Shown: piece by piece, positions 33,949 to 63,755 of the stretch | How the letters are laid out: every line of letters starts with the position of its first letter | Numbering within the stretch: the first letter of the stretch is position 1 | NCBI GenBank assembly: GCA_001779925.1 | Contig: MFEK01000014.1 | Span: 1,011-65,010 of the forward strand | Length of the DNA: 64,000 bases | DNA from: Candidatus Doudnabacteria bacterium RIFCSPHIGHO2_01_FULL_46_14 | GTDB lineage: Bacteria > Patescibacteriota > Doudnabacteria > UBA920 > 2-01-FULL-46-14 | Reading direction: 5' to 3' | Notes under the pieces: model-generated | The model's database searches: none | What the model was told of the DNA's origin: nothing | Seen by the model: only the letters and a program-made list of their open reading frames with translations | Program-made: the position numbers and the translations under genes

Positions 33949-35229
33949 ATGGATAACCAAGAGTTTAGACCCGGCATTGATCGGGTATTATATACTAAAG
34001 CGGTTTACGGGGAAGAAGAAATTGCCGCGGTTGCCAAGGCCCTTCGCGAGGGATGGCTTGGCAATGGGAAGTACACGGAAGAATTTGAGCAAAAGACCGC
34101 TGAGCTATATGGGAAGAAATACGGGCTGTTCGTCAACTCCGGCACTTCGGCCAACATGCTGGCCATGGAGATCGCCAAACTCCCCAAGGGCAGTGAAGTC
34201 ATTACCCAGGCCTGTACGTTTCCGGCAACTCTGTCTCCCATTGTTCAGCAGGGGTTCATCCCGGTGTTCGTTGATTCCAAGATCGGTTCCTATAACATTG
34301 ATTTAGATCAAATCGAGCCGGCAATTTCTGAAAATACGAAAGCCGTTTTTATTTCGCATGCCCTGGGTAACGTCAATCACATGCGCCGTTTGCGGGAGAT
34401 TTGCGATAAATATAAATTGCTGTTTATAGAGGATGCCTGCGACACGATCGGCTGTAAATTTGCTGGCCGGCCTACCGGCGAATATTCGGACATTACTACT
34501 GCGAGTTTCTATGCCGCGCACAATATCACCGCGGGCGGCGGCGGCGGCATGGTTATGGCGAGCGACCCGAAACTCATTTTAGAGGCGAGAATGCTTAACG
34601 ACTGGGGGAGAGCCATGCCTACCTCCGCGGACGAAAATCTGGGAGAGCGTTTTGCCGGCAAGCTGGCCGATACTGATTTTGACGCGAAATTTACTTTTAT
34701 CAAGCAAACCTACAATTTCAAAGCAGTGGAGATGCAAGCGGCATTCGGGCTGGAACAGCTGAAAAAATTGCCGCAGTTTAACGCCAGACGCGCCAGGAAT
34801 TTCCGGCGCCTTTATGATTTTTTTGATCAGCACCGAGAACATTTTTTGCTGCCGGAAATTTTGCCGCAAGCCGAAGTTTATCTGATTGCTTTTCCGGTGA
34901 CAATCAAACCGGAGTCTCCCATAAATCGCAAAGAGCTGATGCTGTTTCTCGAAGAAAACAAAATTCAAACCCGTCCTCTGTTTGCCGGCAATATCCTGCG
35001 GCATCCGGCATTCAAAAACATTACCAAGCGCGTTCACGGCCAAATGGTCAACTCTGACCTGGTTATGAAATATAGCTTCCTGATCGGGTGTCATCATGGC
35101 ATGACTGATAGCATGCTTGACTATATGCTGGGCATTTTCGAAAAGTTTTTGAAAATGATGGAAACCAGGAAAACGCAAAAGATTTTTGAACAAGTCGAGT
35201 TAATTGATTTAAGAGACGACATTCCGTGA
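33949..35229 (+). CDS. DegT/DnrJ/EryC1/StrS-family PLP-dependent sugar aminotransferase/dehydratase
   Basis: ALREGWLGNGKYTEEFEQKTAELYGKKYGLFVNSGTSANMLAM; FISHALGNV; GCHHGMTDSMLDYM. Confidence 0.8.
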   Translation: MDNQEFRPGIDRVLYTKAVYGEEEIAAVAKALREGWLGNGKYTEEFEQKTAELYGKKYGLFVNSGTSANMLAMEIAKLPKGSEVITQACTFPATLSPIVQQGFIPVFVDSKIGSYNIDLDQIEPAISENTKAVFISHALGNVNHMRRLREICDKYKLLFIEDACDTIGCKFAGRPTGEYSDITTASFYAAHNITAGGGGGMVMASDPKLILEARMLNDWGRAMPTSADENLGERFAGKLADTDFDAKFTFIKQTYNFKAVEMQAAFGLEQLKKLPQFNARRARNFRRLYDFFDQHREHFLLPEILPQAEVYLIAFPVTIKPESPINRKELMLFLEENKIQTRPLFAGNILRHPAFKNITKRVHGQMVNSDLVMKYSFLIGCHHGMTDSMLDYMLGIFEKFLKMMETRKTQKIFEQVELIDLRDDIP

Positions 35230-37046
35230 AGCTTTCCGATTATTTAGTTCAGTACCTTGTAGATTTGAATGTCAAGCACGTTTTTTTAGTTATTGGGGGA
35301 GCATGCGCGATTCTTGTTGACGCGATCGGTAAAAACAAGAATCTAAAATACGTTTGCACGCAGCACGAACAAAGCGCGGCCATGGCTGTGGATGCATATT
35401 CGCGCATGACGCAGAACTTCGGCGTGGCAGTCGTAACGTCCGGACCGGGAGCGACCAATCTCATTACCGGCATTTGCTGCGCTTATTTTGATTCGATCCC
35501 GTGTTTGTTTATTGGCGGCCAGGTGAACATTTGGGAAACAAAAGGGGACAAAAAGATCCGCCAGCTTGGTTTTCAGGAAACCGATATCATTGATATGGTT
35601 AAACCAATCACCAAATTTGCGGTTCTGGTCAAGGCGCCGGAAAAGATAAAATATTATTTGGAAAAGGCCGTGTATCTGGCTAAATCCGGCCGGCCGGGTC
35701 CTGTGTGGCTCGACATCCCCATGAATGTCCAGCAGGCTGAAATCGATCCCGACACTCTCGTGGGTTTTGATCCGTCTGAGCTTGGAGAAAAACCGGCAGA
35801 TGTGGCTCAGGAAACTATCTTTAAAATCTTAGCAGAGCTTAAAAAGGCCAAGCGGCCGGTGGTTATCGCCGGATCGGGGATCAAGCTTGGCAAAGCGCAA
35901 ATAGATTTTCTTGAATTTATTAAAAAATTCCGCGCTCCGGTTATTTCCACTTGGAGCGGCGTAGATATTTTACCCTATGATCACGAACTCTATATAGGGC
36001 AATTTGGAGTGTACGGAAATCGCGCGGCGAATTTCACCGTTCAAAACGCAGATCTTGTTCTCAGTCTCGGGTCGCGTCTTGATACCAGGCAGACAGGGGG
36101 GCAGCCAAAAACCTTTGCAAGAGCGGCCAAAAAGATTGTCGTGGATATTGACCGGGGCGAGCTGGAAAAAGACTGGGTAGTGGCGGACCTTCCCGTGTGC
36201 GCGAACGTTAAAGACGTGCTCACAAAACTCAATGATAGTCAGAATGAGACTTTGGAATTTCCAGATTGGCTTGTCAAAGCCAAAGAATGGAAGCAGCGCT
36301 ATCCGGCGGTTCTTCCCGAATTCTACGATCAGAAAGGCTCGGTCAATTCCTATGTTTTTGCCAAAACCTTATCAGAAAAACTCCAGCCGGGCGCGGTGGT
36401 GGTTGCGGACCAGGGGGGCAATCTGACCTGGACAATACAGGCTTTTCAGGTAAAAAACGGACAGCAGCTTTTTTCCGCGTTTGGCAACTCGCCCATGGGT
36501 TACGCTTTGCCCGCGGCCATTGGCGCGGCATTCGCGCGTCCGGGAGAGGCGATTATCTGCATTGACGGCGATTGCGGATTTCAGATGAACATTCAGGAAC
36601 TGCAGACAGTCAAATATTACAATCTGCCGATCAAAATATTTATTTTGAACAATCATTCATACGGCATTATCAAGCAGTTCCAGGAGATTTATTTTGAAGG
36701 ACGCTACACTGCAACTACGCCGGAGACTGGCTACAGCGTGCCGGATTTCATAAAGATCTCCGAGGCTTACGGCATTCCTACGATGACAATCTCTAATCAT
36801 CAGGAACTTTTGGGAAAACTTGACCAAATCCTGGAAGCTGAGGGACCGATTCTCTGCGACGTAATTCTTGACGAGAACCAGAAGCTTATTCCCAAGCTGG
36901 TCTCTGTAAGAAACACTGAAGGCCGCTACATCAGCAGGCCCATAGAAGATTTGTCTCCGCCCTTGTCGCGCGAAGAGCTCAAGGCCAACATGATCGTGAA
37001 AATGCTTGATGAAGAGAAAAGTGAAAAACCCACGGAGATAAACTAA
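35226..37046 (+). CDS. Thiamine-diphosphate enzyme, acetolactate-synthase-large-subunit-like (YerE-like branched-sugar synthase candidate)
   Basis: HEQSAAMAVDAYSRMTQNFGVAVVTSGPGATNLITGICCAYFDSIPCLFIGGQV (ThDP N-terminal domain). Central FAD-like domain. C-terminal GDCGFQMN...NN ThDP-binding motif. Confidence 0.75.
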   Translation: MKLSDYLVQYLVDLNVKHVFLVIGGACAILVDAIGKNKNLKYVCTQHEQSAAMAVDAYSRMTQNFGVAVVTSGPGATNLITGICCAYFDSIPCLFIGGQVNIWETKGDKKIRQLGFQETDIIDMVKPITKFAVLVKAPEKIKYYLEKAVYLAKSGRPGPVWLDIPMNVQQAEIDPDTLVGFDPSELGEKPADVAQETIFKILAELKKAKRPVVIAGSGIKLGKAQIDFLEFIKKFRAPVISTWSGVDILPYDHELYIGQFGVYGNRAANFTVQNADLVLSLGSRLDTRQTGGQPKTFARAAKKIVVDIDRGELEKDWVVADLPVCANVKDVLTKLNDSQNETLEFPDWLVKAKEWKQRYPAVLPEFYDQKGSVNSYVFAKTLSEKLQPGAVVVADQGGNLTWTIQAFQVKNGQQLFSAFGNSPMGYALPAAIGAAFARPGEAIICIDGDCGFQMNIQELQTVKYYNLPIKIFILNNHSYGIIKQFQEIYFEGRYTATTPETGYSVPDFIKISEAYGIPTMTISNHQELLGKLDQILEAEGPILCDVILDENQKLIPKLVSVRNTEGRYISRPIEDLSPPLSREELKANMIVKMLDEEKSEKPTEIN

Positions 37047-46381: not shown

Positions 46382-46449
46382 ACCCCGTTAGAAATGTCTG
46401 TAAATTTCAGCGAGCGGTGCATAATTAATAATTAATTTCTAACGGGGTG
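46379..46449 (+). repeat. MITE-like gene-junction element J6 (shortest copy)
   Basis: TGAACCCCGTTAGAAAT-gtctgtaaatttcagcgagcggtgcataattaataatta-ATTTCTAACGGGGTGAAAA. Confidence 0.8.
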
Positions 46450-47325: not shown

Positions 47326-47331
47326 TCAGTA

Positions 47332-48549
47332 ATGAAAAAGCATAATAAAAATTCCATGCTCCGTGTGCCGTATGCGCTCTCCGTGCATGGCCGCGAAGAA
47401 TCTCAGGCTGTTAGCCGGGTTATCGATGAACACCGGACAGCTCTTGGCATAGAAACTCGGTCCTTTGAGAAAGACGTGGCCAGGCTTTTCGGAAAAAAAT
47501 ACGGCATCATGGTCAACTCCGGTTCTTCAGCGAACCTTTTGGCGTTCGAGCTTTTAAATCTGCCTCGCGGTTCAGAGGTGATTACTCCGATTCTTACTTT
47601 CAACACCACGGTCAGCCCGATACTCCAGAAAGGGCTGGTGCCTGTGTTTGTGGACGTCAAGCCGAAAACTTTTCTCGCTGATCTTGACCAGATCGAAAAG
47701 AAAATTACCAAAAAGACCAAGGTTCTGATGATTCCCTCACTGATCGGCAATGTTCCGGATCTGCCGAAGCTCCAGCGGCTCGCGCGCAAGCATAAGCTTT
47801 TTTTGATTGAAGATTCCTGCGACACGCTCGGTGCCACGTTTAAAGGAAAGCCGACAGGCAGGTTTTCTGATATATCGACAACCAGTTTTTATGGGTCGCA
47901 TGTCATAAACGCGGCGGGAGGCGGCGGGATGATTTGCGTAAATGATCCGCGATGGCGGGACCGTTTGCTCATGCTGCGTGGCTGGGGCCGAACCTCCGCG
48001 TTGTTTGCCGATTCGGAAAAATTTTCAGAGAGATTTAAAATGAAGCTTGTTGGCGTTCCTTATGACGGGAAATTTATTTTTTCCGAGGTCGGCTACAATT
48101 TTCTGCCGCTGGAGATCAGCGCGGCTTTCGGACGGGTGCAGCTCAGGAAACTGCCGAAATTTACCAAAATTCGCCAGGGAAATTTTGCCGGTTTGCTGAA
48201 ATATTTCCGCCGTTGGGAGAAATATTTTGAACTGCCGGTGCAGACTCCCGGGACTCGGACCAACTGGATCGCTTTTCCGCTCGTGATCCGGGCCGGCGCG
48301 CCTTTTTCCCGCATCGAGATTGTAAAATTTTTGGAAACGCGTAATATTCAAACCAGGCCGGTTTTTTCCGGGAACATTCTGCGCCAGCCAGCATATGTCA
48401 GGCTCGCGAAATCCAAGGGCCTCGCAAAATTTCCTGTTGCTGACAGGATCATGAGAAACGCGTTCGTGGTCGGTTGTCATCATGGGCTGACGGAGCGCCA
48501 TCTGCGGCGTCTCAAGCATGTATTTGACCAGTTTTTGAAAGCTTTATGA
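47332..48549 (+). CDS. DegT/DnrJ/EryC1/StrS-family PLP-dependent sugar aminotransferase (second copy)
   Basis: YGIMVNSGSSANLLAFE; LIEDSCDTLGATFKGKPTG; VGCHHGLTERHL. Stop TGA is part of J7. Confidence 0.8.
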   Translation: MKKHNKNSMLRVPYALSVHGREESQAVSRVIDEHRTALGIETRSFEKDVARLFGKKYGIMVNSGSSANLLAFELLNLPRGSEVITPILTFNTTVSPILQKGLVPVFVDVKPKTFLADLDQIEKKITKKTKVLMIPSLIGNVPDLPKLQRLARKHKLFLIEDSCDTLGATFKGKPTGRFSDISTTSFYGSHVINAAGGGGMICVNDPRWRDRLLMLRGWGRTSALFADSEKFSERFKMKLVGVPYDGKFIFSEVGYNFLPLEISAAFGRVQLRKLPKFTKIRQGNFAGLLKYFRRWEKYFELPVQTPGTRTNWIAFPLVIRAGAPFSRIEIVKFLETRNIQTRPVFSGNILRQPAYVRLAKSKGLAKFPVADRIMRNAFVVGCHHGLTERHLRRLKHVFDQFLKAL

Positions 48550-48633
48550 ACCCCGCGTTAGAAATTTCCGATTACAACGGTATAACTATAATTATGAAAA
48601 TAATATTAACTCAAAAGGATTTCTAACGGGGTG
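48547..48633 (+). repeat. MITE-like gene-junction element J7
   Basis: TGAACCCCGCGTTAGAAAT ... AAGGATTTCTAACGGGGTGAAAA. Confidence 0.8.
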
Positions 48634-49395
48634 AAAACTATCATACTTTGCGGCGGTAAAGGCACGCGCATGAAAGAGGAGACCGAGTTCAAACCGAAGC
48701 CGCTCGTGGAGATCGGCGGTCGGCCCATTCTCTGGCATATTATGAAAATTTACGCTCATTATGGTTTTCGGGAATTTATCTTGGCCTTGGGATATAAAGG
48801 CGAAATGATCATTGATTATTTCCTGAAGCATAAATATTTGCTGAATGATTTTACGCTTGACACTGGCACGGGCAGTGTGGAGTTTCATGACGAAAATCAT
48901 GACAATTTGAAAATCACTTTTGTGGATACGGGTGCCGAATCTTTGACCGGCGAGCGGATTATGCGCGTAAAGAAATATCTGGACGGCGATCAGTTTATGG
49001 TGACCTACGGCGACGGAGTGAGCGACATTGACATCAAAGCCCTGGTGGATTTTCACAATAAACAGAATAAAATCGGCACGATCTCCGGCGTGCAGCTCCA
49101 GACAAAATACGGATTAATTAATGTTGACGAAACCGGTTTGGTGAAAAATTTTCGCCAAAAACCCCTGCTTTCTGATTACGTCAGCGGGGGGTTTATGGTG
49201 TTTAACAAAAAAGCCTTGGACTATATTAATACGGGTTGGATTGAAAGCTCTTTGGAAAAGCTGGCCGATGAAGGCCAACTCGCCATGCATAAACACGATG
49301 GTTTTTGGAAAGCCGTTGATACCTACAATGAGCTGACGGAGCTCAATAAATTGTGGGAAGATGGCAGACCCTGGGCAGTGTGGGAGAAAAATTAG
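48631..49395 (+). CDS. rfbF: Glucose-1-phosphate cytidylyltransferase
   Basis: MKTIILCGGKGTRMKEETEFKPKPLVEIGGRPILWHIMKIYAHYGFREFILALGYKGEMI, canonical RfbF/DdhA N-terminus. GTG start from junction element. Confidence 0.85.
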   Translation: MKTIILCGGKGTRMKEETEFKPKPLVEIGGRPILWHIMKIYAHYGFREFILALGYKGEMIIDYFLKHKYLLNDFTLDTGTGSVEFHDENHDNLKITFVDTGAESLTGERIMRVKKYLDGDQFMVTYGDGVSDIDIKALVDFHNKQNKIGTISGVQLQTKYGLINVDETGLVKNFRQKPLLSDYVSGGFMVFNKKALDYINTGWIESSLEKLADEGQLAMHKHDGFWKAVDTYNELTELNKLWEDGRPWAVWEKN

Positions 49396-50632: not shown

Positions 50633-52693
50633 ATGAAATATTTATTCGAAAAACTTGCCAGCATTAACCGATACGGACTGGTAATCCCAGGCATTGCCCT
50701 GGCTACAGTTGTTTATTATCAGTTCGCTTATTTTGTTTTCATCTATACTAACGCTCAAGCACATCGGATCGTGCCTGATTTTTTTGATTTTACGCAAATG
50801 GTGTTCCTACCGGAGCCATACGAGACTATCGGCTATTTTTTGGGCTTTTTGATTATCCCATTTCTGGGATTGCTTACTGCCTCCTTGTTTAATTTTTTGG
50901 TAGATAAAAACTATATTAGGCGCGAATTTGTGCAAAAATGGCCGATTGCCCTAGTAGTTTGCGCTTTGGCTTTTCTGTCGTACAAAATCGCGCTGCACCT
51001 ATTGTGGTTTGATGTATGGCATGAAACCGAACCGCCCGGAGACTTGAAACTGCAATTAATGCTGCTTTCTAGCATGGGCATCGGCCTGCTTCTCTACTGG
51101 CGAAGTTTTGATATCTCCCGACTCTTCGCCTGGGCAGAGAAACTGCCATGGGGGAAAATCCGTCCGATTTTATTTTTGTTTCTCGCCTTGCTTCTACTCT
51201 CGCCGAATTTCCCTTTTGATTACCATCACTACACTGACCAGATTGCTCCGGCCAATGATTTGCTCCACAGTAAGCAGTTTCTGAACCGCGATGGAACCTA
51301 CAGCCATTATGGTTTGCTGAATACATATTTTTGGTATGCTTTATTTAGCTTTGTTCCGATTTCTTATCAGGCAGCGTCTTTGGCGGTAATGCTCGCGGCA
51401 GTTGCTTGGTTTTTTGCCTGGTATTTTATTTTTCGTAACTGGCTGAAATCTGAAGCCATTGCCGCGCTCGCGACTCTGGTTATGATTGTTTTTTTCACTG
51501 TGCCCAAACTCGAGTTTGATTCGATTTATGGAGCGCCTTCCGCTACGCCGTTCCATCAGTTAGGGTTTTTGGTGGTGGCTTTGCTGTGGCTTAGATTTGC
51601 ACTGCAAAGTCAGAGTATCCGCACCGTGAATCTGATTTTAATGAGTACTGCTGTTGCCGCATTTTGGTACGTGGATACAGGTTTGTATGTGGTGGCTAGT
51701 ACGCTCGGCGTGTTTGCGTTTTGGAATTTTTTTTCTGATGGGCCGCTTGCACGCAGGATAAAAGATTTTTTGTGGATAGCAGTCAAACTAGTTTTAATGA
51801 TTTGCGGCCTGGTTGCTGCCTATTCTGTGTGGCAATTTTTTCGGTTCGGCGCGTGGCCAGATTGGCCACTTTTGTATTTTCCAGCGCTCGTTTATCAGAG
51901 CGGCTACATGATGGTGCCGCTGCCAAGCTATGGGTTTTATTTAGTTTTTATTTTTATCTTTTTAGTTTCCTTGGGTTATTTGCTTTGGAAAGCCTACAGG
52001 GAAAGCGAAAAGCTGCCAGAACTTGTCTTTCCTTTATTTTTGACACTGTTTGGGGTTTTGCAAATGCTTTATTACATCACCCGTTCGCATACCACCAACC
52101 TTGCCCCGCGCGTCTCGTTTTTTTTGGTGGCCATTATTGCTTGGTGGTGGACACTTCTAAAAAATGATCGTGAAACAAAGCGCAATATTTATGTGGCTTT
52201 TTCCAGCGTCCTAGCTGGTATACTCATCTTTGTGGCCCTTGCTGGCGCCTACAAATTTCGGAACGCTTTTTCCAGCCGCAATTATAACATAGCCGGCAAT
52301 TATAGGTCAGAATTTGTGGGTCGTGCGGATGTTTATGGCGGTAACGCAGATATTCTCGAGGATATCGCGATTCTAAAGAGCGACTACAATTCGATTGAGC
52401 GGCCCGCGGTTTTCCACTGGTGGGATTCAAAAATATTTATAGATTTAGAGAAGACCAATCATCTGCCGATTTTTTTGTTTCAATCAATCCTCTTAAAATC
52501 AGAGGTAGACCCGATAGTGGCAAAGATTCGAGAGGATAAGCCGCAGTATGTATTTATTGCCCGTAAAGATGTGCCCGCTGTATACGGTTTTGAAGTGTTT
52601 TTTGATAAATTGGATTATTTTTATGATGGCATCAAGGATCTATATATTGTTGATCGGCAGTTGAAAACTATGAATGTTTTGAAATTAAAATAA
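50633..52693 (+). CDS. Large polytopic membrane protein with C-terminal soluble domain (putative polysaccharide polymerase / GT-C-like)
   Basis: 686 aa, more than 12 hydrophobic helices, hydrophilic tail of about 160 aa. No confident family. Confidence 0.4.
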   Translation: MKYLFEKLASINRYGLVIPGIALATVVYYQFAYFVFIYTNAQAHRIVPDFFDFTQMVFLPEPYETIGYFLGFLIIPFLGLLTASLFNFLVDKNYIRREFVQKWPIALVVCALAFLSYKIALHLLWFDVWHETEPPGDLKLQLMLLSSMGIGLLLYWRSFDISRLFAWAEKLPWGKIRPILFLFLALLLLSPNFPFDYHHYTDQIAPANDLLHSKQFLNRDGTYSHYGLLNTYFWYALFSFVPISYQAASLAVMLAAVAWFFAWYFIFRNWLKSEAIAALATLVMIVFFTVPKLEFDSIYGAPSATPFHQLGFLVVALLWLRFALQSQSIRTVNLILMSTAVAAFWYVDTGLYVVASTLGVFAFWNFFSDGPLARRIKDFLWIAVKLVLMICGLVAAYSVWQFFRFGAWPDWPLLYFPALVYQSGYMMVPLPSYGFYLVFIFIFLVSLGYLLWKAYRESEKLPELVFPLFLTLFGVLQMLYYITRSHTTNLAPRVSFFLVAIIAWWWTLLKNDRETKRNIYVAFSSVLAGILIFVALAGAYKFRNAFSSRNYNIAGNYRSEFVGRADVYGGNADILEDIAILKSDYNSIERPAVFHWWDSKIFIDLEKTNHLPIFLFQSILLKSEVDPIVAKIREDKPQYVFIARKDVPAVYGFEVFFDKLDYFYDGIKDLYIVDRQLKTMNVLKLK

Positions 52694-53454: not shown

Positions 53455-53835
53455 ATGAAAATCACAAGAAACATAAAGCCCGAGGTAGTTGAGGACAGAG
53501 GAAACATTACGCGTATTCTGGATGTCGAGGAGCCTCTCCATAGCGTGCTTTATGTCACGTCCAAGGCTGGATCAACCCGGTCAAACCATTACCATAAAGA
53601 AGATACGCATTACTGCTACATTATTTCCGGAAAAGCCCAGTGGCATGAACGAGCGGTCGATGGCGGGCAAATAGAAAAAGAAATTTTGAACGCCGGCGAT
53701 ATGGTGGAAACTCCGCCGATGACCATTCATGCTGTAAAATTTTTGGAAGACACAGTTTTTCTCGCATTCTCGACACAGCCGCGCAACCAGGAGCACTATG
53801 AGGACGATACAGTACGCGTCAAATTGATCGAATAG
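53455..53835 (+). CDS. Cupin-domain protein (WxcM/FdtA-like sugar isomerase cupin candidate)
   Basis: 126 aa; RSNHYHKEDTHYCYIISGKAQWHERAVDG...GDMVETPPMTIHAVKF two-His cupin motifs. Confidence 0.55.
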   Translation: MKITRNIKPEVVEDRGNITRILDVEEPLHSVLYVTSKAGSTRSNHYHKEDTHYCYIISGKAQWHERAVDGGQIEKEILNAGDMVETPPMTIHAVKFLEDTVFLAFSTQPRNQEHYEDDTVRVKLIE

Positions 53836-53837
53836 CT

Positions 53838-54719
53838 ATGGGCACGCTTGGTTTCGGAGTAATTGGCACCGGCCGGTTTGGTCAACATTATACGAGGCTC
53901 CTTCGGGAAATCCAGGGAGTCTTTTTACTTGCAACTGCCAGCCAACATGAGAATAATTCGGAGGCTTTACTTGAAAATCCAGATATAGACTGCGTAGTGA
54001 TCGCCAGTCCCGCGGCTACGCATTTTGAGTACATCAAGAAAGCATTAAAAAACGGTAAACATGTGCTCGTGGAAAAACCTATGGTGACAAGCGCTGCCGA
54101 GGCCGAGGAAATAAAAATTCTAATAGCAAAAAGCGGCAAGATATTCATGGTCGCGCATCAATATTTATATAACGATTACATTCGAGCACTTAAAGCGCGA
54201 ATCGAAAGCGGCGATCTGGGGGAAGGGGCAAATATTAACGCAGAGCATTTGTATCCCGGGCCGATTCGGCAGGACGTGGGAGTGTTTTGGGATGCGGCCC
54301 CGCATGAAATGGCGATAATTGATTATCTTTTTGGACCAAGCAGGGTAATCTACGCTCAAGGCATTGCCAGAAAAGTTTCCGGCGCGCCAGTGGATGATTA
54401 TGTTTCTGTGGATGTGCAGTTTGAAAACAAAGTGTTTGCCTCCCTCCTTTATAATAGCGCCAGCCTGCAAAAAACCCATCGGATTGTTTTGACAGCATCC
54501 AAAGGGACGGCAATTTATGATGACATGGCCGATGATAAGCTAAAATTCAATCTGGGCAAAGAGCCGGTAATTGAAAAGATCAGTGCACGGGAGCCGTTGC
54601 GCAGTGAGCTTGAGCATTTTACTTCATGCGTTCGTAACAATACACTGCCGCTGACGGATATTGACCACGGCTTGCGGGTCATAAAGAATCTGGAAATGGT
54701 TTACGAACACCTCAATTGA
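53838..54719 (+). CDS. Gfo/Idh/MocA-family NAD(P)-dependent oxidoreductase
   Basis: LGFGVIGTGRFGQHYTRLL; DCVVIASPAATHFEYIKKALKNGKHVLVEKP, the family's conserved EKP motif. Confidence 0.8.
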   Translation: MGTLGFGVIGTGRFGQHYTRLLREIQGVFLLATASQHENNSEALLENPDIDCVVIASPAATHFEYIKKALKNGKHVLVEKPMVTSAAEAEEIKILIAKSGKIFMVAHQYLYNDYIRALKARIESGDLGEGANINAEHLYPGPIRQDVGVFWDAAPHEMAIIDYLFGPSRVIYAQGIARKVSGAPVDDYVSVDVQFENKVFASLLYNSASLQKTHRIVLTASKGTAIYDDMADDKLKFNLGKEPVIEKISAREPLRSELEHFTSCVRNNTLPLTDIDHGLRVIKNLEMVYEHLN

Positions 54720-54776: not shown

Positions 54777-56441
54777 ATGACGCAAGTGCAAGCTCTGGCG
54801 ATTTTAAAAACCGGAGCGAATGTTTTTTTGACTGGGGAACCAGGGGCCGGTAAAACTCACATTGTCAATGAATATGTCGCGTATCTGCGCAGACGGGGGA
54901 TAACGCCAGCCATCACTGCCTCAACCGGCATTGCCGCCACACACATAAGCGGTATGACCATCCATTCCTGGAGCGGCATTGGCATCAAAACCCACCTTGA
55001 TAAATACGACCTTGACCGTATTGCCTCAACCGAGCGAGTGGTGAGACGCATTGAAAACACATCTGTTCTGATCATTGACGAGATTTCTATGTTATCTTCC
55101 GGGACGTTGTCTATGGTGGATGCGATTTGTCGCGATGTGCGGCGCTCTCCAGATCAAGCGTTCGGCGGCCTGCAAACTATTTTCGTTGGCGATTTTTTCC
55201 AACTGCCTCCAGTTTCAGAAAACTCGGATCACGGCTTCGCTTACGAGTCTCCTGCCTGGAGCGCTGCCGATCCCACGGTTTGTTATTTGACTGAACAGTT
55301 CCGTCAGGATGACGAGGATTTTTTGACTCTGCTCAAAGCCATTCGCGCCAATACTTTCAACAGCGATCACGAGCGGTATATGCTGTCACGAAAAAAACAG
55401 GTGAGCGAAGTCTCTGAATCCATCCCGCGATTTTTCCCGCACAATGCCCAGGTTGACCGGGTGAATGAGGATAGGCTCAGCAAGCTTGCTGGAGACCCAA
55501 AAATATTTGCCATGTCTACGAAAGGCGCTGCAGCACTCGTGGAATCACTCAAGAAAGGCTGTTTGTCGCCAGAGAATTTACAGCTCAAGGTTGGCGCGGC
55601 CGTGATGTTTACGAAAAATGTGCAGAAACAAGGTTTTGTGAATGGCACGCTGGGCACTATCAAAGATTTCAACACCACTACAGGTCTGCCGATCGTGAAG
55701 ATGAGAAGCGGCCGAACCGTCACAGTGGAACCAGCGGAATGGTCATTGCAAGAAAACGGCCGCGTGCGGGCGAGTATCACACAGCTTCCGCTGCGCCTGG
55801 CATGGGCCATCACTGTGCATAAAAGCCAGGGCATGAGTCTTGATGAAGCGGCCATGGATCTCTCAAACGTGTTTGAATACGGCCAAGGCTATGTAGCGCT
55901 GTCGCGCGTCCGCCGCCTCTCGGGCCTGCATATTTTCGGCTGGAACGCGCGCACCTTTCAGGTGCATCCGGAGATTTTGGCAAGCGACAACCAGTTCCGC
56001 AGCGCATCTGCTACGGCCGAAATAGCGTTAAATAGCATGCCTGCAGAAACACTTCAAAAAGCTCATGACGATTTTGCCGCGCGCTGCGGCGGGCATCCGG
56101 AATCTGCCGAAGATTCTCCCGGAGAAGAGCTCTCTGCGCTCGATACCTATGGCATTACCCTCGCATACTGGAACGAAAACAAGACTCTCGCTGAGATTGC
56201 CACTGTGCGCGAGCTCAAGGAGGAAACGATTTTGTCGCACATCGAAAAACTCGCGAACACAGGCAAGATTGCCAAAACCGACATCTCTCGCCTCCTTACC
56301 CCAGCGCTCGACCAGGCTCTGCCGGAAATCCACGCCGCGTTCCGCGAGCTTGGCCATGACAAACTCTCGCCCATCAACGCCCATTTTTCCGGCCGCTATC
56401 CCTACGACAGCCTGCGCATCGCGCGCATGCTTTTGAAATAA
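54777..56441 (+). CDS. PIF1/RecD-like superfamily-1 DNA helicase
   Basis: Walker A LTGEPGAGKTH; ASTGIAATHISGMTIHSWSGIG; Walker B LIIDEISML; QFRQ; KSQG; SRV motif. Typical PIF1-like layout. Confidence 0.7.
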   Translation: MTQVQALAILKTGANVFLTGEPGAGKTHIVNEYVAYLRRRGITPAITASTGIAATHISGMTIHSWSGIGIKTHLDKYDLDRIASTERVVRRIENTSVLIIDEISMLSSGTLSMVDAICRDVRRSPDQAFGGLQTIFVGDFFQLPPVSENSDHGFAYESPAWSAADPTVCYLTEQFRQDDEDFLTLLKAIRANTFNSDHERYMLSRKKQVSEVSESIPRFFPHNAQVDRVNEDRLSKLAGDPKIFAMSTKGAAALVESLKKGCLSPENLQLKVGAAVMFTKNVQKQGFVNGTLGTIKDFNTTTGLPIVKMRSGRTVTVEPAEWSLQENGRVRASITQLPLRLAWAITVHKSQGMSLDEAAMDLSNVFEYGQGYVALSRVRRLSGLHIFGWNARTFQVHPEILASDNQFRSASATAEIALNSMPAETLQKAHDDFAARCGGHPESAEDSPGEELSALDTYGITLAYWNENKTLAEIATVRELKEETILSHIEKLANTGKIAKTDISRLLTPALDQALPEIHAAFRELGHDKLSPINAHFSGRYPYDSLRIARMLLK

Positions 56442-56592
56442 ATAAGATTAGCTTGCCCGCCTCGTCATAGCTTTTTGACCGTCCGAAGCCTTGGCGGAGG
56501 TGGAAGGGGAGGGTGATAATAATATGGCCAATAGAAAATCCAGCGAACAAAATATTCGCCATGGAGAGGTTTTTGTTTATATGAAAAAGAAA

Positions 56593-56624
56593 AACAGCGC
56601 GATTGCTATGGCAATCGCGCTGTT
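56593..56624 (-). terminator. Hairpin terminator serving the minus-strand gene (possibly bidirectional)
   Basis: AACAGCGCGATTGC-tatg-GCAATCGCGCTGTT. On the minus strand it is followed by a T-rich run (TTTTTCTTTTTC). Confidence 0.5.
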
Positions 56625-56627
56625 TCG

Positions 56628-56984
56628 TTAGAGAATGTGGGTGATATTCTCGAGGAGGGCTTTCTCCAGTTTTTTCCTGGAAAAGAGGGGGAAATGTTCC
56701 GGGAGTTCGTCGTCGAGCGCTCTATTGATGGCGTCAGCGATTCGTTGATCCCGAGGTCCGGTGTTTTTCATTTTTCGTTCAATGTATCCGTGGATTTCAA
56801 TATGATCCCCGCGATACTCGTCGTTGCCCCGACCTTCATCGCAGGCATCAAGCAACCGTTTCCACTGCCCATCTTCTAGCTCGTCAGCTACGTCATCGAT
56901 CAAACCATGAAAGATAATGACGTGCATTCCTTCACGAAGCCTTCTATCTAAAATCATCATCACGGCGTCCACATTTCCGCTCAT
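56628..56984 (-). CDS. Hypothetical acidic protein (118 aa)
   Basis: Clean ORF convergent with the helicase. No recognisable motifs. Rich in D/E. Confidence 0.4.
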   Translation of the reverse strand: MSGNVDAVMMILDRRLREGMHVIIFHGLIDDVADELEDGQWKRLLDACDEGRGNDEYRGDHIEIHGYIERKMKNTGPRDQRIADAINRALDDELPEHFPLFSRKKLEKALLENITHIL

Positions 56985-57241
56985 CCTTATCCTCCTGTTT
57001 TGATTGCGTTAAAGGAGAAATACTAGCAGAAATTCGCCTTCCTGTCAACACTTCCTGCCAACGGCTATCATTGCCTTAACCGTGAGACTGACTGCGAGTA
57101 TAAAGGCTTGGAAGTTTATAATTTTGTATACGAGAGATACCCTGGCCCAATTAAAGTTAAATAATTACATATTTAATTAGGTAATTCCCGGGGCAGGGGT
57201 GTGATTCCTGACTCTCAATCAGAATCCCAGCTCAACCAACG

Positions 57242-57271
57242 CGTAGTACAATTCTACCGAATTGTACTACG
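57242..57271. promoter_or_regulatory. 30-bp palindromic operator candidate upstream of arsR-family gene
   Basis: CGTAGTACAATTC-TACC-GAATTGTACTACG. Confidence 0.55.
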
Positions 57272-57296
57272 TTTAGTTTTATGCTATGGTGGAGGT

Positions 57297-57569
57297 ATGA
57301 AACGCTGGACGCAAATTTTTAAAGCTTTGGCTAATATGAACCGGTTGAAGATCATAGCATTGCTGGCTGACCGAATGCCGCTTACTGTCACGGAGATTGC
57401 TGACGAGCTTGGCATTTCTTTTCGGGCAACGTCGCGGCATTTGTTGCTTCTCAGCAGCCTGGATATTCTCGTGAGCCAAGGCAAGGACGGACATGTTTAT
57501 TATGGTTACAATAGCAGCATGCCTGTGGACATTAAAAAGATTGTCGAGCTTTTCCTTCACAACCTTTAA
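57297..57569 (+). CDS. ArsR/SmtB-family HTH transcriptional regulator
   Basis: MKRWTQIFKALANMNRLKIIALLADRMPLTVTEIADELGISFRATSRHLLLL, the classic ArsR N-terminus and HTH. SD GGTGGAGG. Confidence 0.8.
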   Translation: MKRWTQIFKALANMNRLKIIALLADRMPLTVTEIADELGISFRATSRHLLLLSSLDILVSQGKDGHVYYGYNSSMPVDIKKIVELFLHNL

Positions 57570-58409: not shown

Positions 58410-60236
58410 ATGCAGTTATCAATAATCATCCCAGCTTATAACGAAGAAAACCGCCTGGCCCTGACCTTGGACCGGATTTTTGAATATTTGGCCGTGCATT
58501 ACCAGGGCGATTATGAGGTGATTATTGCGGATGATGGTTCCACAGACCGCACCGTGGAAATTGTTGCCGCTTATATGAAACGCCATCCGGAACTCAGGCT
58601 TTTAAAATTCGCCGCAAACCGAGGCCGGGGCGCCGCAGTCCGCAGCGCGGTTTCTGAGGCCAAAGGCGATTTTATCCTTGAGACTGATGCGGACGGCAGT
58701 ACAAATGAGCATGCGATCATTGCTTTTTTGAGCTATTTGGCCAAGCACCAGGACACCGATGTTTTGGTTGGTTCGCGCAATATTGAGGGCTCGCGTGTGC
58801 TTTCACCTCAGCCTGTATTGCGGGTGATGCTTGGCTACGCGTTTTTATTTTTGGCCAAGTTTTTGTACGGCTGGCCGCTCGTGGACCGGCAAAACCGCTT
58901 CAAGATGTTCCGACGTGAGGCGGCATTCGATATTTTTCGTTGCCAAAAAGACAATGGATTTTTGGCGGAAGCAGAAATCGTCTACATCGCAGAAAAACGC
59001 GGCTGGCAGGTAAAAGAATTGCCGATTTTGTGGACCGAATACAAAGGCTCGCACGTGCGGCCGTTTCGTGATTCGTGGCGTTCGCTGATCGGCATGTTTC
59101 AGATATTGCTGAGGAGCCATCGAGGCGAGTATTCTCAAAATATTTCTGTCTCGCAAAAGCCGAAAGCAGAAGCTGCGGCAAAAAACGAATTTGTCAGCGT
59201 GCTCATCACTGGCGGCTGCGGGTTTATCGGTTCCAATTTTGTCCGTTATTTTTATCACAATCATCCGCGCGCCAAGATCGTAAATCTTGATCTTTTAACC
59301 TATGCTGGAAATATCGCGAACCTGCGCGATCTTCAAGATTTGGAATCGCTTCTGCCGGAAGCGCGGCGCCGGTATTCTTTTGTGCAAGGCGATATTTGCG
59401 ATCCGCAGCTTTTGGAGGAGCTATTTGCCAAAAATCATTTTGATTTGGTGGTGCATTTTGCTGCCGAGTCGCATGTGGACCGTTCGATATTTAACATGGG
59501 TGATTTTGTGCGCACTAACATCGAGGGGACGCGGATTTTGGCGGAGACGGCACGCCGGCACGCCATCAAGCGGTTTGTTAATATTTCTACCGATGAGGTT
59601 TATGGCTCGATAAAGGATGGCTACGCATCCGAAGAGTGGACTCTCCGGCCTTCCAATCCTTACTCTGCATCTAAGGCCGGAGCAGATCTGCTCGTGCAGG
59701 CTTATATTCGCACTCATGACCTGCCGGCCATCATCATTCGCGGCTCAAACAATTACGGCCCGTTCCAATATCCGGAAAAGCTTATTCCCTTGGCGATCAC
59801 CAATCTTTTAGAGGGGAAAAAGATCCCGGTGCACGGCTATGGCATTCATGTACGCAGCTGGTTGCATGTCCTGGATTTTTGTCGGGCAATTGACGCGATA
59901 GCCAGCGGCAATCCCCAGCATCGAATCTATAATGTGGCTGGCGAGGAAAAAACCAACCATGACGTCTTAGAGCTCATTGCCAGATACCTAGGCAAGAGCC
60001 TTGCGGATCATAGGTTTCATGTTAATGACCGCCCGGGCGCGGATCATCGTTACGCCGTGGACGCAATTCGTTTGGAAAAAGAGTTTGGCAAATTGTCTAT
60101 GCACCAGCCGTTTGAGCAGCAAATCGGCAAGATCGTGCAGTGGTATATTGATAACGCTGATTGGTGGCGCGAGATTCGCCTCAAGGAAGGGTTCACTAGA
60201 GCTTATGAACGACAATCAAAAGGACAGTGGAGTTAG
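58410..60236 (+). CDS. Fusion protein: N-terminal GT2 glycosyltransferase + C-terminal dTDP-glucose 4,6-dehydratase (RmlB) domain
   Basis: N-terminus paralogous to 57675 (LSIIIPAYNEENRL; EVIIADDGSTDRT; ILETDADGST). C-terminus VLITGGCGFIGSNFV...LTYAGN...HFAAESHVDRS...ISTDEVYG...YSASKAGADLLV...NNYGP.QYPEKLIPL, strong motif-by-motif RmlB match. Confidence 0.8.
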   Translation: MQLSIIIPAYNEENRLALTLDRIFEYLAVHYQGDYEVIIADDGSTDRTVEIVAAYMKRHPELRLLKFAANRGRGAAVRSAVSEAKGDFILETDADGSTNEHAIIAFLSYLAKHQDTDVLVGSRNIEGSRVLSPQPVLRVMLGYAFLFLAKFLYGWPLVDRQNRFKMFRREAAFDIFRCQKDNGFLAEAEIVYIAEKRGWQVKELPILWTEYKGSHVRPFRDSWRSLIGMFQILLRSHRGEYSQNISVSQKPKAEAAAKNEFVSVLITGGCGFIGSNFVRYFYHNHPRAKIVNLDLLTYAGNIANLRDLQDLESLLPEARRRYSFVQGDICDPQLLEELFAKNHFDLVVHFAAESHVDRSIFNMGDFVRTNIEGTRILAETARRHAIKRFVNISTDEVYGSIKDGYASEEWTLRPSNPYSASKAGADLLVQAYIRTHDLPAIIIRGSNNYGPFQYPEKLIPLAITNLLEGKKIPVHGYGIHVRSWLHVLDFCRAIDAIASGNPQHRIYNVAGEEKTNHDVLELIARYLGKSLADHRFHVNDRPGADHRYAVDAIRLEKEFGKLSMHQPFEQQIGKIVQWYIDNADWWREIRLKEGFTRAYERQSKGQWS

Positions 60237-61458
60237 AACGGTCGGCAATTGCCGAATCTGCCGTTCCACTGCGCTTGCGGAATTTTTTAATTTAGGCGAG
60301 CAGCCGCTGGCTAATTCGTTTTTGAAAGCAGAGGATCTGGAAAAACAGGAGCCGTATTATCCGCTGCGCGTGCTGTTTTGCGAAAGCTGCAATCTGATTC
60401 AGCTCGGCGAGGTTGTAAACCCGGAGCTGATGTTTGGCGATTATGTATATTTTTCCTCGGGCATGCCGGCAAGCGCGCATTTCCGGACTTACGCGGAAAA
60501 TATTGTCAAAAGATTTGTGAGCCGTTCGGAGGATCTGTTTGTGGAGATTGGCAGCAACGACGGGCATTTTTTGTCAGTGGTCAAGGAGACGCACGCGAAT
60601 ATCCTGGGCATTGATCCGGCAAAAAATATTGCCGCAGTGGCCAACAAAAAAGGAATAAAGACTATTCCGGATTTTTTTGGAGCGCGCGTTGCCGCAGATA
60701 CGGCGGCGCAGTATGGACTGGCCAAGGTGATTTTGGGAAATAATGTGGTGGCGCATATTGACGATCACCATGATCTGGCTGCCGGAGTCGATAAGCTTTT
60801 GGCGCCGGACGGCGTATTTATTTTTGAGGCGCCGTACCTCGTGGACATGTTTGAGAATCTGACGTTTGATACGATTTATCATGAGCATCTGTCGTATCTG
60901 GCGGTGCGGCCGATGATCAAACTGCTCGATCAATACAATCTCGAAATTTTTGACGTCGAAATCCATCCCATCCAGGGCCAATCCATCCGGGTTTTTGCCG
61001 GCAGAAAAGGCGTTCGGCCCGTCCAGGGTTCGGTGACCGGCCTCATCAATAAAGAGTTGGCCATGAAATTGGATCAAATTGCCAGCTATTTCAAACTGGC
61101 TGAGAAGATAGAGAATTTAAAAAAAGAAGTGAAGGATTTGGTAAATGATTTAAAAGCGCGGGGGAAAAGGATTATCGGTTATGGCGCACCGGCAAAAGGC
61201 AACACGCTGTTGAATTATTATCGCATTGGCGCGGATATTTTGGATTACGCCACCGAGGAGCTTCCCTCAAAGATCGGTCTTTACACTCCGGGTACGCACA
61301 TTCCAGTCGTTCACGTTTCCGAGTTCAGGGACAATCCGCCTGATTACGCGTTTTTTCTGGCCTGGAATTACCGCGATGCCGTTTTTGAGAAAGAGATGGA
61401 TTTTCGGCGGAAAGGCGGAAAATTTATAATGCCTGTGGGAGAGGTTAGAATGTTATGA
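60206..61458 (+). CDS. NDP-sugar C-methyltransferase (TylC3/EvaC-like; Zn-ribbon + class I MTase + C-methyltransferase C-terminal domain)
   Basis: ATG at 60206. CRICRS...CESCN zinc-ribbon; VEIGSNDGHFL (motif I); C-terminal domain typical of sugar 3-C-methyltransferases. Confidence 0.7.
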
Positions 61459-63755
61459 GGCTGAAAGTCTTTTTAGTTTTTATTGTCGCCGTCGCTTTGC
61501 CGCTGCTGCCGCAGATTTCCGGCCGCTTCACTTTCGCTAACGGTGATGTTTTGAACCTGCATCTGCCAACTCTGCAATTTTACGCTGATTCTCTGAAAGC
61601 CGGGCAGAGTTTTTTTTGGAATCCTTATACTTTGGGAGGCTTCCCGTCGTTTGCCAGCACGGCTGGGGGACTACTGTCTCCTTTAAATCTGGCGCTATTC
61701 AGTTTTTTGCCGATGCTTAACGCTCATATTTTGGCGATTGTATTTAATTTGGCACTAGCCGGATTTTTTACCGCGATTTTTTTGAAGCGCTTGGGACTGT
61801 CTTTCTGGCCGCAAATTTTCGGGGGAATGATTTTTGTTTTCAGCCAGTGGTTCATAGTCAGCGATTTGGGAATTGTAAATAGCTTTCCGGTTTTACCGCT
61901 ACTCTTCATTGTTCTTTGGGAAGCGCAGAATAAAAAATTACCCGTGGTTTTGGGAGGATTACTGCTTGGCTTCATGTGGTTTGCCGCTCACTATAACTGG
62001 ATTTTTATGATTTTGGCGTCCGGTATGGCTTTTGCTCTCTACCTGGGGCCGAAGGTTGTTGGAAAATACTTGCTCATGAATTTGATCGGAGGAGTAATCG
62101 CCATCCCTCAGATTTATTCTGCTTTTATTTACAGCCAGTTATCGGCGCGCACCGCGGTGAGTTTTTTGGAAGCGCAGGGCGGAGGGCTGGCGGTATTTGA
62201 TCTGCCGAAATTGTTTTTGCCTTTTTTAAGATTTTCTTTTTTGAGTAACGCCGAGGCCCTGATTTATATCGGGCTGGTGCCGCTCTGTTTTTTAGCGCTG
62301 GGTTTCTTTGTGAAAAACAAAGCCGCGAATTTTTTTAAAATTCTGTTCGTGCTCAGTTTAATCCTATCAGTTAAATATTCCCCTTTATTTTGGATTTTGA
62401 ATAAACTGCCGGTGTTTGAAAATTTCCGCGGGCCTTCACGATGGATGTTTGTGGGATTTTTTGCCGCAAGCGTTTTGGCGGCTTATAGCCTAGAGGAATT
62501 GCCGAAGCTGGAAATAAAATCCTGGCTCGGAAGAATTTTTTATTGGGTCGGCGTCTCTGTTCTAACTCTCGCCCTGCTTATTTCTATGGTGATCGGGCTT
62601 TTTGGGCAAAGATTGCAAGCTTGGCTGATTGTTTTTTTTGACGTCAATTTTTATGCGAGGACGTCCCAAATTTTACCTGCCCAGCATTACCATCAGGTAG
62701 TGCGGAATATGTTCGAGGAGGTGAGGTCGGCTTTTGCCATGTCAAACTTGAAATTTTTGTTTTCTGCATTGTTTTTGTTTTTAGGGATATTGGTGATAAA
62801 GGCTGTCTTCAATAAAAAAGAGATTAAACCCAAATATTTGGTTTTGTTCTCGATAGCTAATTTCCTGCTCGTTTTCGGTTTTTATCACGCGAATTTACCT
62901 GTTAAAACATGGGCCCGCCAGCCCGAAACCGCGCAGATCCTGCAGTCCCGGCCAGGAAAGGCCGTTTCGTTTCTGCCCGGGATTTTTGAATGGCAAAAAC
63001 TCTCCGTGCCATATGGATATAATCCTGAGGAAACTTTCTATTTCCAATCGGAAATCCTGGCGCCCAATCTGAATGTTTTGTATCAAATTCCTTCCTTGGA
63101 TGGATACGAAAATTTGATGCCGAGAAGATCGGCGAGAATTCTATCGCTATTGGGAAGTGACCGGGCAACTACTGGGGAAAAACTGTCTGAATTTTCCATC
63201 CCGTCCGAAGAAAAATTAAATATCTTTTTACAAAAAAAAACACTTTTGGATAAACTGGGGATTAGGACAGTGATTTCAGCTTTGCCGTTCCCGGGGGACG
63301 AGTTTAGCAAGATTTCTGAACATACGGCGACAACGCACGCCATTCCCATATATGTCTATGAAAACTCCGATGCCCGTCCCGTTCTATACGCAGCAGAGAA
63401 AATTGTAAAAATTAGTCCGGATGAGACCGCGGCTTTTAGTTTGATTCAAACACTGGCTGCCGACACTGACCTTTTGGAATGCGATCCTTGCCCTGGTTTC
63501 AGCCCGAGTCCGGTTCAGGATTTGAAAGTTCTGGCAAAAACCAATGATTCAATTCAGTTCCAGGTTCAGTCACAGGGTGATGCTTTGATTGTGTTTGGAC
63601 AAACTAATCTTCCTGGATGGCAGGCCGCAGTTGATGGGGTGCGAACGGAAATTTTTACCGTCAATTCGCTTTATATGGGAGTGGTCGCGCCGGCCGGGCA
63701 GCACATTGTGGAGTTTAAATACCGTCTGCTACAGTTGTTAAAAAGGGGAAATTAG
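61455..63755 (+). CDS. Large polytopic membrane protein (YfhO-like / GT-C-like) with C-terminal soluble domain
   Basis: 766 aa. More than 12 TM helices in the first 500 aa. Hydrophilic C-terminal beta-rich domain. Confidence 0.4.
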   Translation: MRLKVFLVFIVAVALPLLPQISGRFTFANGDVLNLHLPTLQFYADSLKAGQSFFWNPYTLGGFPSFASTAGGLLSPLNLALFSFLPMLNAHILAIVFNLALAGFFTAIFLKRLGLSFWPQIFGGMIFVFSQWFIVSDLGIVNSFPVLPLLFIVLWEAQNKKLPVVLGGLLLGFMWFAAHYNWIFMILASGMAFALYLGPKVVGKYLLMNLIGGVIAIPQIYSAFIYSQLSARTAVSFLEAQGGGLAVFDLPKLFLPFLRFSFLSNAEALIYIGLVPLCFLALGFFVKNKAANFFKILFVLSLILSVKYSPLFWILNKLPVFENFRGPSRWMFVGFFAASVLAAYSLEELPKLEIKSWLGRIFYWVGVSVLTLALLISMVIGLFGQRLQAWLIVFFDVNFYARTSQILPAQHYHQVVRNMFEEVRSAFAMSNLKFLFSALFLFLGILVIKAVFNKKEIKPKYLVLFSIANFLLVFGFYHANLPVKTWARQPETAQILQSRPGKAVSFLPGIFEWQKLSVPYGYNPEETFYFQSEILAPNLNVLYQIPSLDGYENLMPRRSARILSLLGSDRATTGEKLSEFSIPSEEKLNIFLQKKTLLDKLGIRTVISALPFPGDEFSKISEHTATTHAIPIYVYENSDARPVLYAAEKIVKISPDETAAFSLIQTLAADTDLLECDPCPGFSPSPVQDLKVLAKTNDSIQFQVQSQGDALIVFGQTNLPGWQAAVDGVRTEIFTVNSLYMGVVAPAGQHIVEFKYRLLQLLKRGN

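Follow-up and report, generated by a model that had tools for sequence, protein, structure and literature searches.

A rare fusion of a GT2 glycosyltransferase domain with an RmlB-type dTDP-glucose 4,6-dehydratase in a Doudnabacteria operon

Is a glycosyltransferase joined in one polypeptide to an enzyme that makes an activated sugar a genuine protein and, if so, what does the union achieve? The question is raised by a gene of Candidatus Doudnabacteria bacterium RIFCSPHIGHO2_01_FULL_46_14 (Patescibacteriota), which lies in a stretch of 64,000 nucleotides of contig MFEK01000014.1 (assembly GCA_001779925.1), referred to hereafter as the window. The gene is a single uninterrupted, ATG-initiated open reading frame (ORF) on the forward strand (58410..60236), encoding 608 amino acids with no internal stop. 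A preliminary description had read it as a family 2 glycosyltransferase (GT2) fused to a complete dTDP-glucose 4,6-dehydratase (RmlB), and had suggested that the fusion channels the 4-keto-6-deoxy intermediate. The architecture was confirmed; channelling was not. We propose that the product is probably a bifunctional enzyme, derived from two merged genes, which joins the first and the last cytoplasmic steps of a lipid-linked 3-C-methyl-6-deoxyhexose route.

Both domain sets were readily recognized. Pfam placed Glycos_transf_2 at residues 4–172 (2.4e-30) and GDP_Man_Dehyd/Epimerase, which are extended short-chain dehydrogenase/reductase (SDR) families, at residues 264–536 (7e-61); with NCBIfam TIGR01181, every profile match that had been proposed as a check was obtained. 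An identical 608-residue protein is encoded on contigs that come from five separate samples or runs, deposited in ENA (ERZ4903055 and ERZ27254845), JGI (3300002502) and Logan (SRR2090153 and SRR3989344), which supports the read-through for which confirmation had been sought. The search for the same fusion in related genomes was also successful. It yielded 15 clusters (90% identity) of 601–615 residues, 58–99% identical to the query at 100% query coverage, each with both domain sets; one of them (P0012) was found on 22 contigs. With 15 clusters among 5.8 billion cluster representatives, the architecture is rare, in agreement with the view that such a fusion is uncommon. Mean column identity in the alignment of the fusion proteins was 76%. 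Both halves were well conserved, and only the linker of about 20 residues varied, in sequence as well as in length. The region around the linker (residues ∼238–266) reads ...GEYSQNISVSQKPK... into NEFVSVLITGG....

An assembly or sequencing artefact, or a pseudogene, would imply a stop or frameshift between two genes in the true genome. Such a reading can draw on relatives in which the two genes are separate, and on GenBank, which lists only a 364-residue RmlB for this genome. That protein (OGE78342.1, ‘dTDP-glucose 4,6-dehydratase’, beginning MSVSQKPKAE), however, equals fusion residues 245–608, and its start is an in-frame ATT at position 59142 (Ile245 of the fusion), inside the linker. Because this start lies in frame within the same ORF, the omission of the 244-residue GT2 half from the record reflects how the gene was annotated and no difference in the sequence, and the public annotation, which holds only the RmlB half, is corrected here. 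The identical ORF in five samples, the frame kept by 15 diverged clusters and the retention of all family-invariant residues in both halves led us to reject an artefact or mis-join, which we regard as extremely unlikely. Conservation of the reading frame across a linker that itself varies evidently excludes a mis-joined pair or a pseudogene, as the preliminary description had maintained from the absence of an internal stop. We conclude that the GT2–RmlB fusion is, as judged by these comparisons, a genuine single gene, rare and restricted to a small clade of Patescibacteria. A supposed second copy of the fusion at 35226..37046 (606 amino acids) was rejected, as it encodes a thiamine pyrophosphate-dependent enzyme.

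The C-terminal half matched TIGR01181 with 383.4 bits (curated cutoff 365.1), residues 264–589 aligning with model positions 2–321 of 321, and thus the dehydratase is complete, as had been claimed. All six motifs quoted in support of that claim are present in the translation: GGCGFIGSNF (268–277), LTYAGN (296–301), AAESHVDRS (351–359), STDEVYG (393–399), YSASKAG (418–424) and NNYGPFQYPEKLIPL (447–461). The NAD-binding G268-G269-x-G271-F-I-G274 (GGxGFIG) and the catalytic T394-D395-E396 and Y418...K422 (YxxxK) were invariant in the 15 fusion proteins. A Foldseek search with the full-length model matched the RmlB structures 2hun, 1ker, 1keu, 6bi4 and 1r66 (40–46% identity, E 1e-25 to 1e-26, TMt 0.78–0.87). 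On the strength of a profile score above the cutoff, a fold shared with solved RmlBs and invariant catalytic motifs, this half is assigned to TIGR01181 as a predicted dTDP-glucose 4,6-dehydratase of the extended SDR type, apparently complete and catalytically active.

For the N-terminal half, a profile built from 71 family members gave as its best single-domain PDB matches DPMS (5mlz, 1.7e-27, aligned through residue 173), GtrB (2.7e-26) and ArnC (2.6e-22). The model of the domain was of high quality (predicted local distance difference test, pLDDT, 93.5; predicted template modelling score, pTM, 0.91), and its top 15 Foldseek matches were all ArnC, DPMS or GtrB. Superposition with 5mlz extended over the whole domain (TMq 0.81, root-mean-square deviation 2.6 Å over 245 columns). 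DDGS, D93-A-D95 and D159-R160 were invariant in the GT2 halves of the 15 fusion proteins, and JGI names the homologues dolichyl-phosphate beta-glucosyltransferase. By profile and by predicted fold, the GT2 half thus appears closest to the polyprenyl-phosphate sugar synthases DPMS, GtrB and ArnC. The preliminary description missed this type, which alters the logic of the pathway. The model also contains a hydrophobic helix (136–153) and a strongly amphipathic one (218–237, muH 0.53). Judged from the full-length structural alignment, these helices may correspond to the membrane-interface helices of DPMS and GtrB.

Several features of the GT2 half weigh against a lipid-linked role. No transmembrane (TM) segment was detected in it (Kyte-Doolittle-19, maximum 1.55, below threshold), whereas GtrB, ArnC and archaeal DPMS have C-terminal TM helices. 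Its motif reads DADGS, as opposed to DADLQxPP in DPMS. The curated NCBIfam models scored far below their cutoffs: PgfS, the best-scoring glycosyltransferase model among the NCBIfam matches of the fusion, gave 69 against 500, PpgS 55 against 370 and DPhHxTase_Halo 49.6 against 375. Human-type DPM1 also has no TM helix, so the missing helix does not exclude a polyprenyl-phosphate function. The half is best described, from its scores, as a family-level relative of the polyprenyl-phosphate glycosyltransferases and evidently not as a member of a curated equivalog. Taken further, the lack of a TM helix and the distance from the equivalog cutoffs would fit a conventional soluble GT-A transferase acting on a growing glycan or a small-molecule acceptor. 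Non-lipid GT2s (GpgS, WrtF and TarS) do occur among the fold matches with E ∼1e-11, and ordinary glycan-assembly glycosyltransferases are abundant in the window. We nevertheless consider a soluble transferase quite unlikely, given that the top 15 fold matches and the best single-domain profile matches are all polyprenyl-phosphate glycosyltransferases, with alignments that span the presumed interface helices, and that a GT-C-like partner always lies downstream.

The fusion habits of the same family also speak against a soluble transferase. An exhaustive profile search of 1.84 billion representatives showed this GT2 family fused to other partners in other lineages: to GtrA_DPMS_TM (P0340), to a PMT_2 GT-C domain (P0257), to LPG_synthase_TM (P0372), to methyltransferases and, in tandem, to a second GT2 (P0252 and P0280); P0253 is a further listed fusion protein. 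The same search recovered the fusion cluster (P0015), whereas in a word-indexed search with the GT2 half the known fusion proteins were not among the best 120 matches. The family of about 245 residues appears highly prone to fusing with pathway partners, and its GtrA, PMT_2 and LPG_synthase_TM fusions can be read as Rosetta-stone links to lipid-carrier glycosylation. The fusion studied here likewise would tie a large, poorly annotated, TM-less GT2 family of Patescibacteria to a specific deoxysugar pathway.

The origin of the fusion was examined in related loci. In L006 (GCA_028712155.1) and L007 the genes are ordered cupin, GFO/IDH/MocA oxidoreductase, GT2, RmlB, C-methyltransferase, a small extra gene and a YfhO-like gene. 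GT2 (244 amino acids) and RmlB (351–354 amino acids) are there separate, spaced by 7 nucleotides in L006 and overlapping by 4 nucleotides in L007. The split proteins are 60–63% (GT2) and 63–71% (RmlB) identical to the halves of the fusion. Protein and DNA alignments placed the ends of the split GT2s (...GLYSQK*) and the beginnings of the split RmlBs (MEHEFGSVLITGG) on either side of the fusion linker. The fusion locus differs from the split loci in its single frame, in some 12–15 extra, non-conserved linker codons and in the additional GT2 paralogue upstream. As GT2 and RmlB are separate, adjacent genes in the corresponding operon of relatives, the fusion evidently arose by merger of two neighbouring operon genes. 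In an outgroup control, RmlB was neither fused to nor within 4 kb of the GT2 gene at 80 distant loci from many phyla (27–44% identity), taken from among the matches listed in a scan of GTDB genomes.

Neighbour-joining trees agree with a merger but not with a simple history. In the RmlB tree, all fused proteins fell in one clade, sister to the split-operon RmlBs, and three free RmlBs (P0018–P0020) nested within that clade. In the GT2 tree, the fused GT2s grouped with the split-operon GT2s, free GT2s nested near the fused P0009 and P0010, and the upstream extra GT2s of fusion-bearing contigs, including that of the window, formed a separate clade. Two loci of the free nested RmlBs, L008 (7054–10281) and L095 (4058–5880), have RmlB without an adjacent full-length GT2, although L095 keeps a 103-residue GT2 fragment. 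In L094 (6001–8074), GT2 is followed directly by the methyltransferase gene; RmlB is absent and the membrane protein is kept alongside. A clean single origin was not upheld, with free RmlBs and GT2s nested among fused ones and loci that lack either half. The trees carry no bootstrap support and do not settle the number of events; a single fusion, an independent duplication of GT2 and the subsequent loss of domains are likely but unproven.

The genes around the fusion are listed below. The GT2 paralogue precedes it so closely that the TAA stop directly abuts the ATG of the fusion, and its relationship to the fused domain had been correctly noted (244 amino acids, against the roughly 250 first estimated; E 8e-88). 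The two GT2s may act together, as the tandem GT2–GT2 fusions of the family hint.

Features of the fusion gene and of its operon in the window (all on the forward strand; aa, amino acids)
Feature	Position	Strand	Basis
Small cupin, 126 aa, candidate 4-keto-sugar epimerase/isomerase	53455..53835	+	Pfam Polysacc_synt_C, Cupin_2
GFO/IDH/MocA oxidoreductase, 293 aa, candidate sugar ketoreductase	53838..54719	+	Pfam; PDB
Standalone GT2 paralogue, 244 aa	57675..58409	+	PF00535; 50% identity to fused GT2
Fusion gene: GT2 domain, linker, dTDP-glucose 4,6-dehydratase	58410..60236	+	ORF, two domain sets, recurrence
GT2 domain, aa 1–244, DPMS/GtrB/ArnC-like type, no TM helix	58410..59141	+	PF00535, profile, fold
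Linker, ∼aa 245–263	59142..59198	+	Variable alignment columns, low pLDDT
RmlB domain, aa 264–608 and stop codon	59199..60236	+	TIGR01181, fold, motifs
NDP-hexose 3-C-methyltransferase, 417 aa	60205..61458	+	Pfam Methyltransf_13/14; PDB matches
YfhO-like polytopic membrane protein, 766 aa, candidate GT-C transferase	61455..63755	+	Pfam YfhO

The methyltransferase downstream of the fusion matched three PDB entries over its full length: 4rv9, deposited as D-mycarose 3-C-methyltransferase (3.3e-93), 5t64 (5e-79) and TcaB9 (3ndi, 1.4e-78). The substrates that these enzymes methylate at C3 are dTDP-4-keto-6-deoxy sugars, the type of product that RmlB makes. The start of the methyltransferase gene overlaps the 3′ end of the fusion by 32 nucleotides (60205–60236), out of frame, and an overlap of the same length between RmlB and methyltransferase genes recurs in L002, L005, L006 and L007, in fused and split loci alike. 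Such conservation suggests translational coupling.

In all the related loci, a large membrane protein is encoded downstream of the methyltransferase. That of the window, the YfhO-like protein, contains 11 or more hydrophobic segments within its first 480 residues and scored 51.4 bits against a Pfam YfhO cutoff of 28.5, the match being C-terminal (model positions 754–824 of 835). These features give its assignment as a candidate GT-C transferase no more than moderate support. Upstream, the cupin gave weak PDB matches to the cupin of the Cap5F epimerase and to WxcM-like proteins, and its position is conserved in L001–L007 and L094. Matches of the GFO/IDH/MocA protein include 3c1a (3e-22) and the sugar 3-ketoreductase 3rbv (8e-13). 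Fused and split loci therefore share one conserved block: a cupin of about 125 residues, the GFO/IDH/MocA oxidoreductase, GT2 and RmlB, the C-methyltransferase and a large polytopic membrane protein. In the window, the stretch 54777–57569 separates the oxidoreductase gene from the GT2s; it encodes a PIF1-type helicase with a C-terminal HTH_40 domain, a 118-residue ORF on the minus strand and an ArsR-family regulator. Because the oxidoreductase gene lies directly before GT2 or the fusion in other loci, this stretch looks like an insertion into the block.

We consider the following route the probable one; it builds on the reading frame, domain identities, motif conservation, recurrence, split ancestor and operon context observed above. 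Two adjacent, translationally coupled genes would have merged by loss of the stop/start junction. The RmlB half would catalyse the first committed step, from nucleoside diphosphate (NDP)-glucose to NDP-4-keto-6-deoxyglucose. The methyltransferase would then methylate the 4-keto intermediate at C3, and the cupin, as epimerase or isomerase, together with the GFO-type reductase would complete an NDP-3-C-methyl-6-deoxyhexose. The TM-less, DPM1/ALG5/GtrB-like GT2 half would attach the completed sugar to polyprenyl phosphate on the cytoplasmic side of the membrane, after which the lipid-linked sugar would be flipped and moved by the YfhO-like GT-C protein to an acceptor at the cell surface. Fusion would give 1:1 expression and tether a soluble entry enzyme to a membrane-associated exit enzyme, with no tunnelling between active sites. 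What we infer in this scheme is which lipid serves as acceptor, which sugar is made, in what order the steps occur and whether the fusion brings a benefit.

Other observations weigh on the opposite side. No glucose-1-phosphate thymidylyltransferase (RmlA) was found among the scanned ORFs of the window; the sole NTP_transferase among them is glucose-1-phosphate cytidylyltransferase-like (277.7 bits, cutoff 300.25). As the window holds only this cytidylyltransferase-like gene and no thymidylyltransferase, the nucleotide carrier, dTDP or another, is only presumed. In L008 an NTP_transferase gene lies near its GT2. A GtrA-type flippase (PF04138) was likewise not found among the scanned ORFs, most ORFs shorter than 110 residues lying outside the scan, and the window ends 245 nucleotides past the YfhO-like gene; in L006 and L007 a Wzx-like Polysacc_synt gene lies downstream. 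The YfhO-like protein had no PDB sequence match, so that its naming comes from the C-terminal Pfam match. Finally, L008, L095 and L094, each without one half, indicate that the fusion is dispensable.

The position of the methyltransferase bears directly on the suggested channelling, in which RmlB would hand dTDP-4-keto-6-deoxyglucose to the fused GT2, and methylation and reduction would follow transfer, possibly on the lipid-linked sugar. In its favour, the two activities are covalently joined, even in fusion proteins that have diverged to about 58% identity, and there is a precedent in the Arn pathway, where deformylation by ArnD modifies the sugar after it has been loaded onto lipid. Yet the methyltransferase is closely related, over its full length, to solved 3-C-methyltransferases that act on dTDP-linked 4-keto sugars, and its gene is coupled to RmlB through the 32-nucleotide overlap, not to GT2. 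The methyltransferase, the cupin and the GFO protein would all act between the two fused activities. In the full-length model (pLDDT 76, pTM 0.56) confident packing between the domains was absent and linker residues 244–257 had pLDDT <50, which leaves the variable linker without a defined interface, and close relatives run the operon with separate proteins. RmlC and RmlD are encoded as separate genes at 45872–47325 and tblastn revealed no second RmlB in the window, suggesting that the 4-keto product of the RmlB half is released. With intervening enzymes, a variable and disordered linker, split versions in relatives and a product that is apparently released, it is unlikely, and in our estimate highly so, that the 4-keto intermediate passes straight to the transferase and is tailored only after transfer. 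The RmlC and RmlD genes belong to a second deoxysugar set (44794–49395), which comprises an SDR, RmlC (3.7e-61), RmlD (above the TIGR01214 cutoff), an RfbH-like pyridoxal phosphate enzyme (338 bits, below cutoff) and the glucose-1-phosphate cytidylyltransferase-like gene.

A different objection is that the halves are functionally unrelated and merged neutrally, GT2 being an ALG5-like polyprenyl-phosphate glucosyltransferase that uses plain UDP-glucose and RmlB supplying 4-keto-6-deoxyglucose to deoxysugar pathways. The JGI name of the homologues would fit this, as would the variants, nested in the fused clade or next to it, that lack one half or the other. With a second, paralogous GT2 gene just upstream and several GT-C candidates in the window, more than one lipid-linked sugar may be made. 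However, the order and close spacing of the GT2, RmlB, methyltransferase and membrane-protein genes are unchanged in diverged split and fused loci, which argues for a single pathway, and in L094, where RmlB is missing, the other three still stand together. We therefore hold a neutral merger to be rather improbable. Among the GT-C candidates is possibly the product of 50633–52693, a 686-residue protein that has about 12 hydrophobic segments, matches no family in Pfam, NCBIfam or elsewhere and may be another GT-C-like transferase; related loci encode a comparable protein of 567–676 residues, likewise unannotated.

The proposed lipid-linked route has the same logic as the Arn pathway. There, an SDR-type enzyme makes a 4-keto nucleotide sugar, which is tailored; the GT2 enzyme ArnC loads the product onto undecaprenyl phosphate, and the GT-C enzyme ArnT transfers it outside. 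The best fold matches of the GT2 half include ArnC. In ArnA, too, two Arn steps that do not follow one another are fused, but the partners are a formyltransferase and a decarboxylase, whereas here a polyprenyl-phosphate transferase is joined to a 4,6-dehydratase. The sugars differ (Ara4N in Arn, presumably a 3-C-methyl-6-deoxyhexose here), and ArnC has TM helices where the fused GT2 has none.

The Doudnabacteria locus, with its GtrB-like GT2 and YfhO-like protein, also resembles three-component systems (GtrA/GtrB/GtrC; CsbB/GtcA/YfhO; PgfS/PgfM of S. mutans), in which, as a passage of PMC7389260 describes, a GtrB-like GT2 works with a YfhO-type or other GT-C protein. Those systems use common UDP-sugars directly, whereas in the present operon a deoxysugar-branching pathway is encoded, with its first enzyme fused to GT2; no GtrA-type flippase was found among the scanned ORFs. 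Known multidomain fusions join RmlB-type 4,6-dehydratases to epimerase and reductase steps, as in plant RHM, RmlC/D fusions and trifunctional enzymes (PMC8987622), and a passage of PMC6556577 describes an RmlB-type dehydratase fused to another enzyme of its own pathway. In RHM-type synthases the partner supplies the next soluble 3,5-epimerase/4-reductase step or steps; in the Doudnabacteria fusion it is a Glycos_transf_2 domain of different fold, which would act several steps later, and there is no epimerase or reductase domain. The GT2–RmlB fusion is not mentioned in the 2022 review of sugar dehydratases (PMC8987622), no curated NCBIfam model covers both halves, and our literature search returned no report of it, only RmlB with epimerase or reductase partners, which is weak evidence of absence. 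Neighbouring genes of a pathway often fuse in evolution, and the two domains come from well-known families.

The known 3-C-methyltransferases are from actinomycete antibiotic pathways, whereas the one described here lies in a presumed surface-glycosylation operon of an uncultured bacterium of the Candidate Phyla Radiation (CPR). An Arn-like or Gtr-like route may place a branched 3-C-methyl-6-deoxyhexose on the CPR surface by way of a lipid-linked monosaccharide, in a group whose envelopes are almost uncharacterized. A bolder and distinctly more doubtful extension is that the lipid donor is a novel one, polyprenyl-phosphate 3-C-methyl-6-deoxyhexose, that the fusion forms the core of a membrane-tethered metabolon which recruits the methyltransferase and the paralogous GT2, and that this donor feeds the YfhO-type GT-C protein. 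If so, a YfhO-type GT-C would decorate the surface of ultra-small CPR cells with a branched-chain sugar that is found elsewhere chiefly in antibiotic biosynthesis. As both fused and split forms occur in nature, what the fusion achieves is directly testable.

The remainder of the window contained other features of note. Rfam and tRNA scans of the window gave no matches. An ORF of 1272 amino acids without a Pfam match occupies 15–3833, in a region of about 53% G+C as compared with about 46% in the next 20 kb. Tandem ORFs of about 275 amino acids (7283–8113 and 8091–8909) match partial N-terminal and central domains of UDP-glucose/GDP-mannose dehydrogenases and lack the C-terminal domain; they may represent a tandem duplication of a truncated dehydrogenase. 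A 298-residue ORF (24845–25741) fuses LacAB_rpiB, a sugar-phosphate isomerase, with a cytidylyltransferase-like domain. Its neighbours encode a PfkB kinase, a GT9 heptosyltransferase-like protein, a transaldolase, a class II aldolase and a HAD phosphatase, with which it may form a pathway to a heptose-type or other unusual NDP-sugar.

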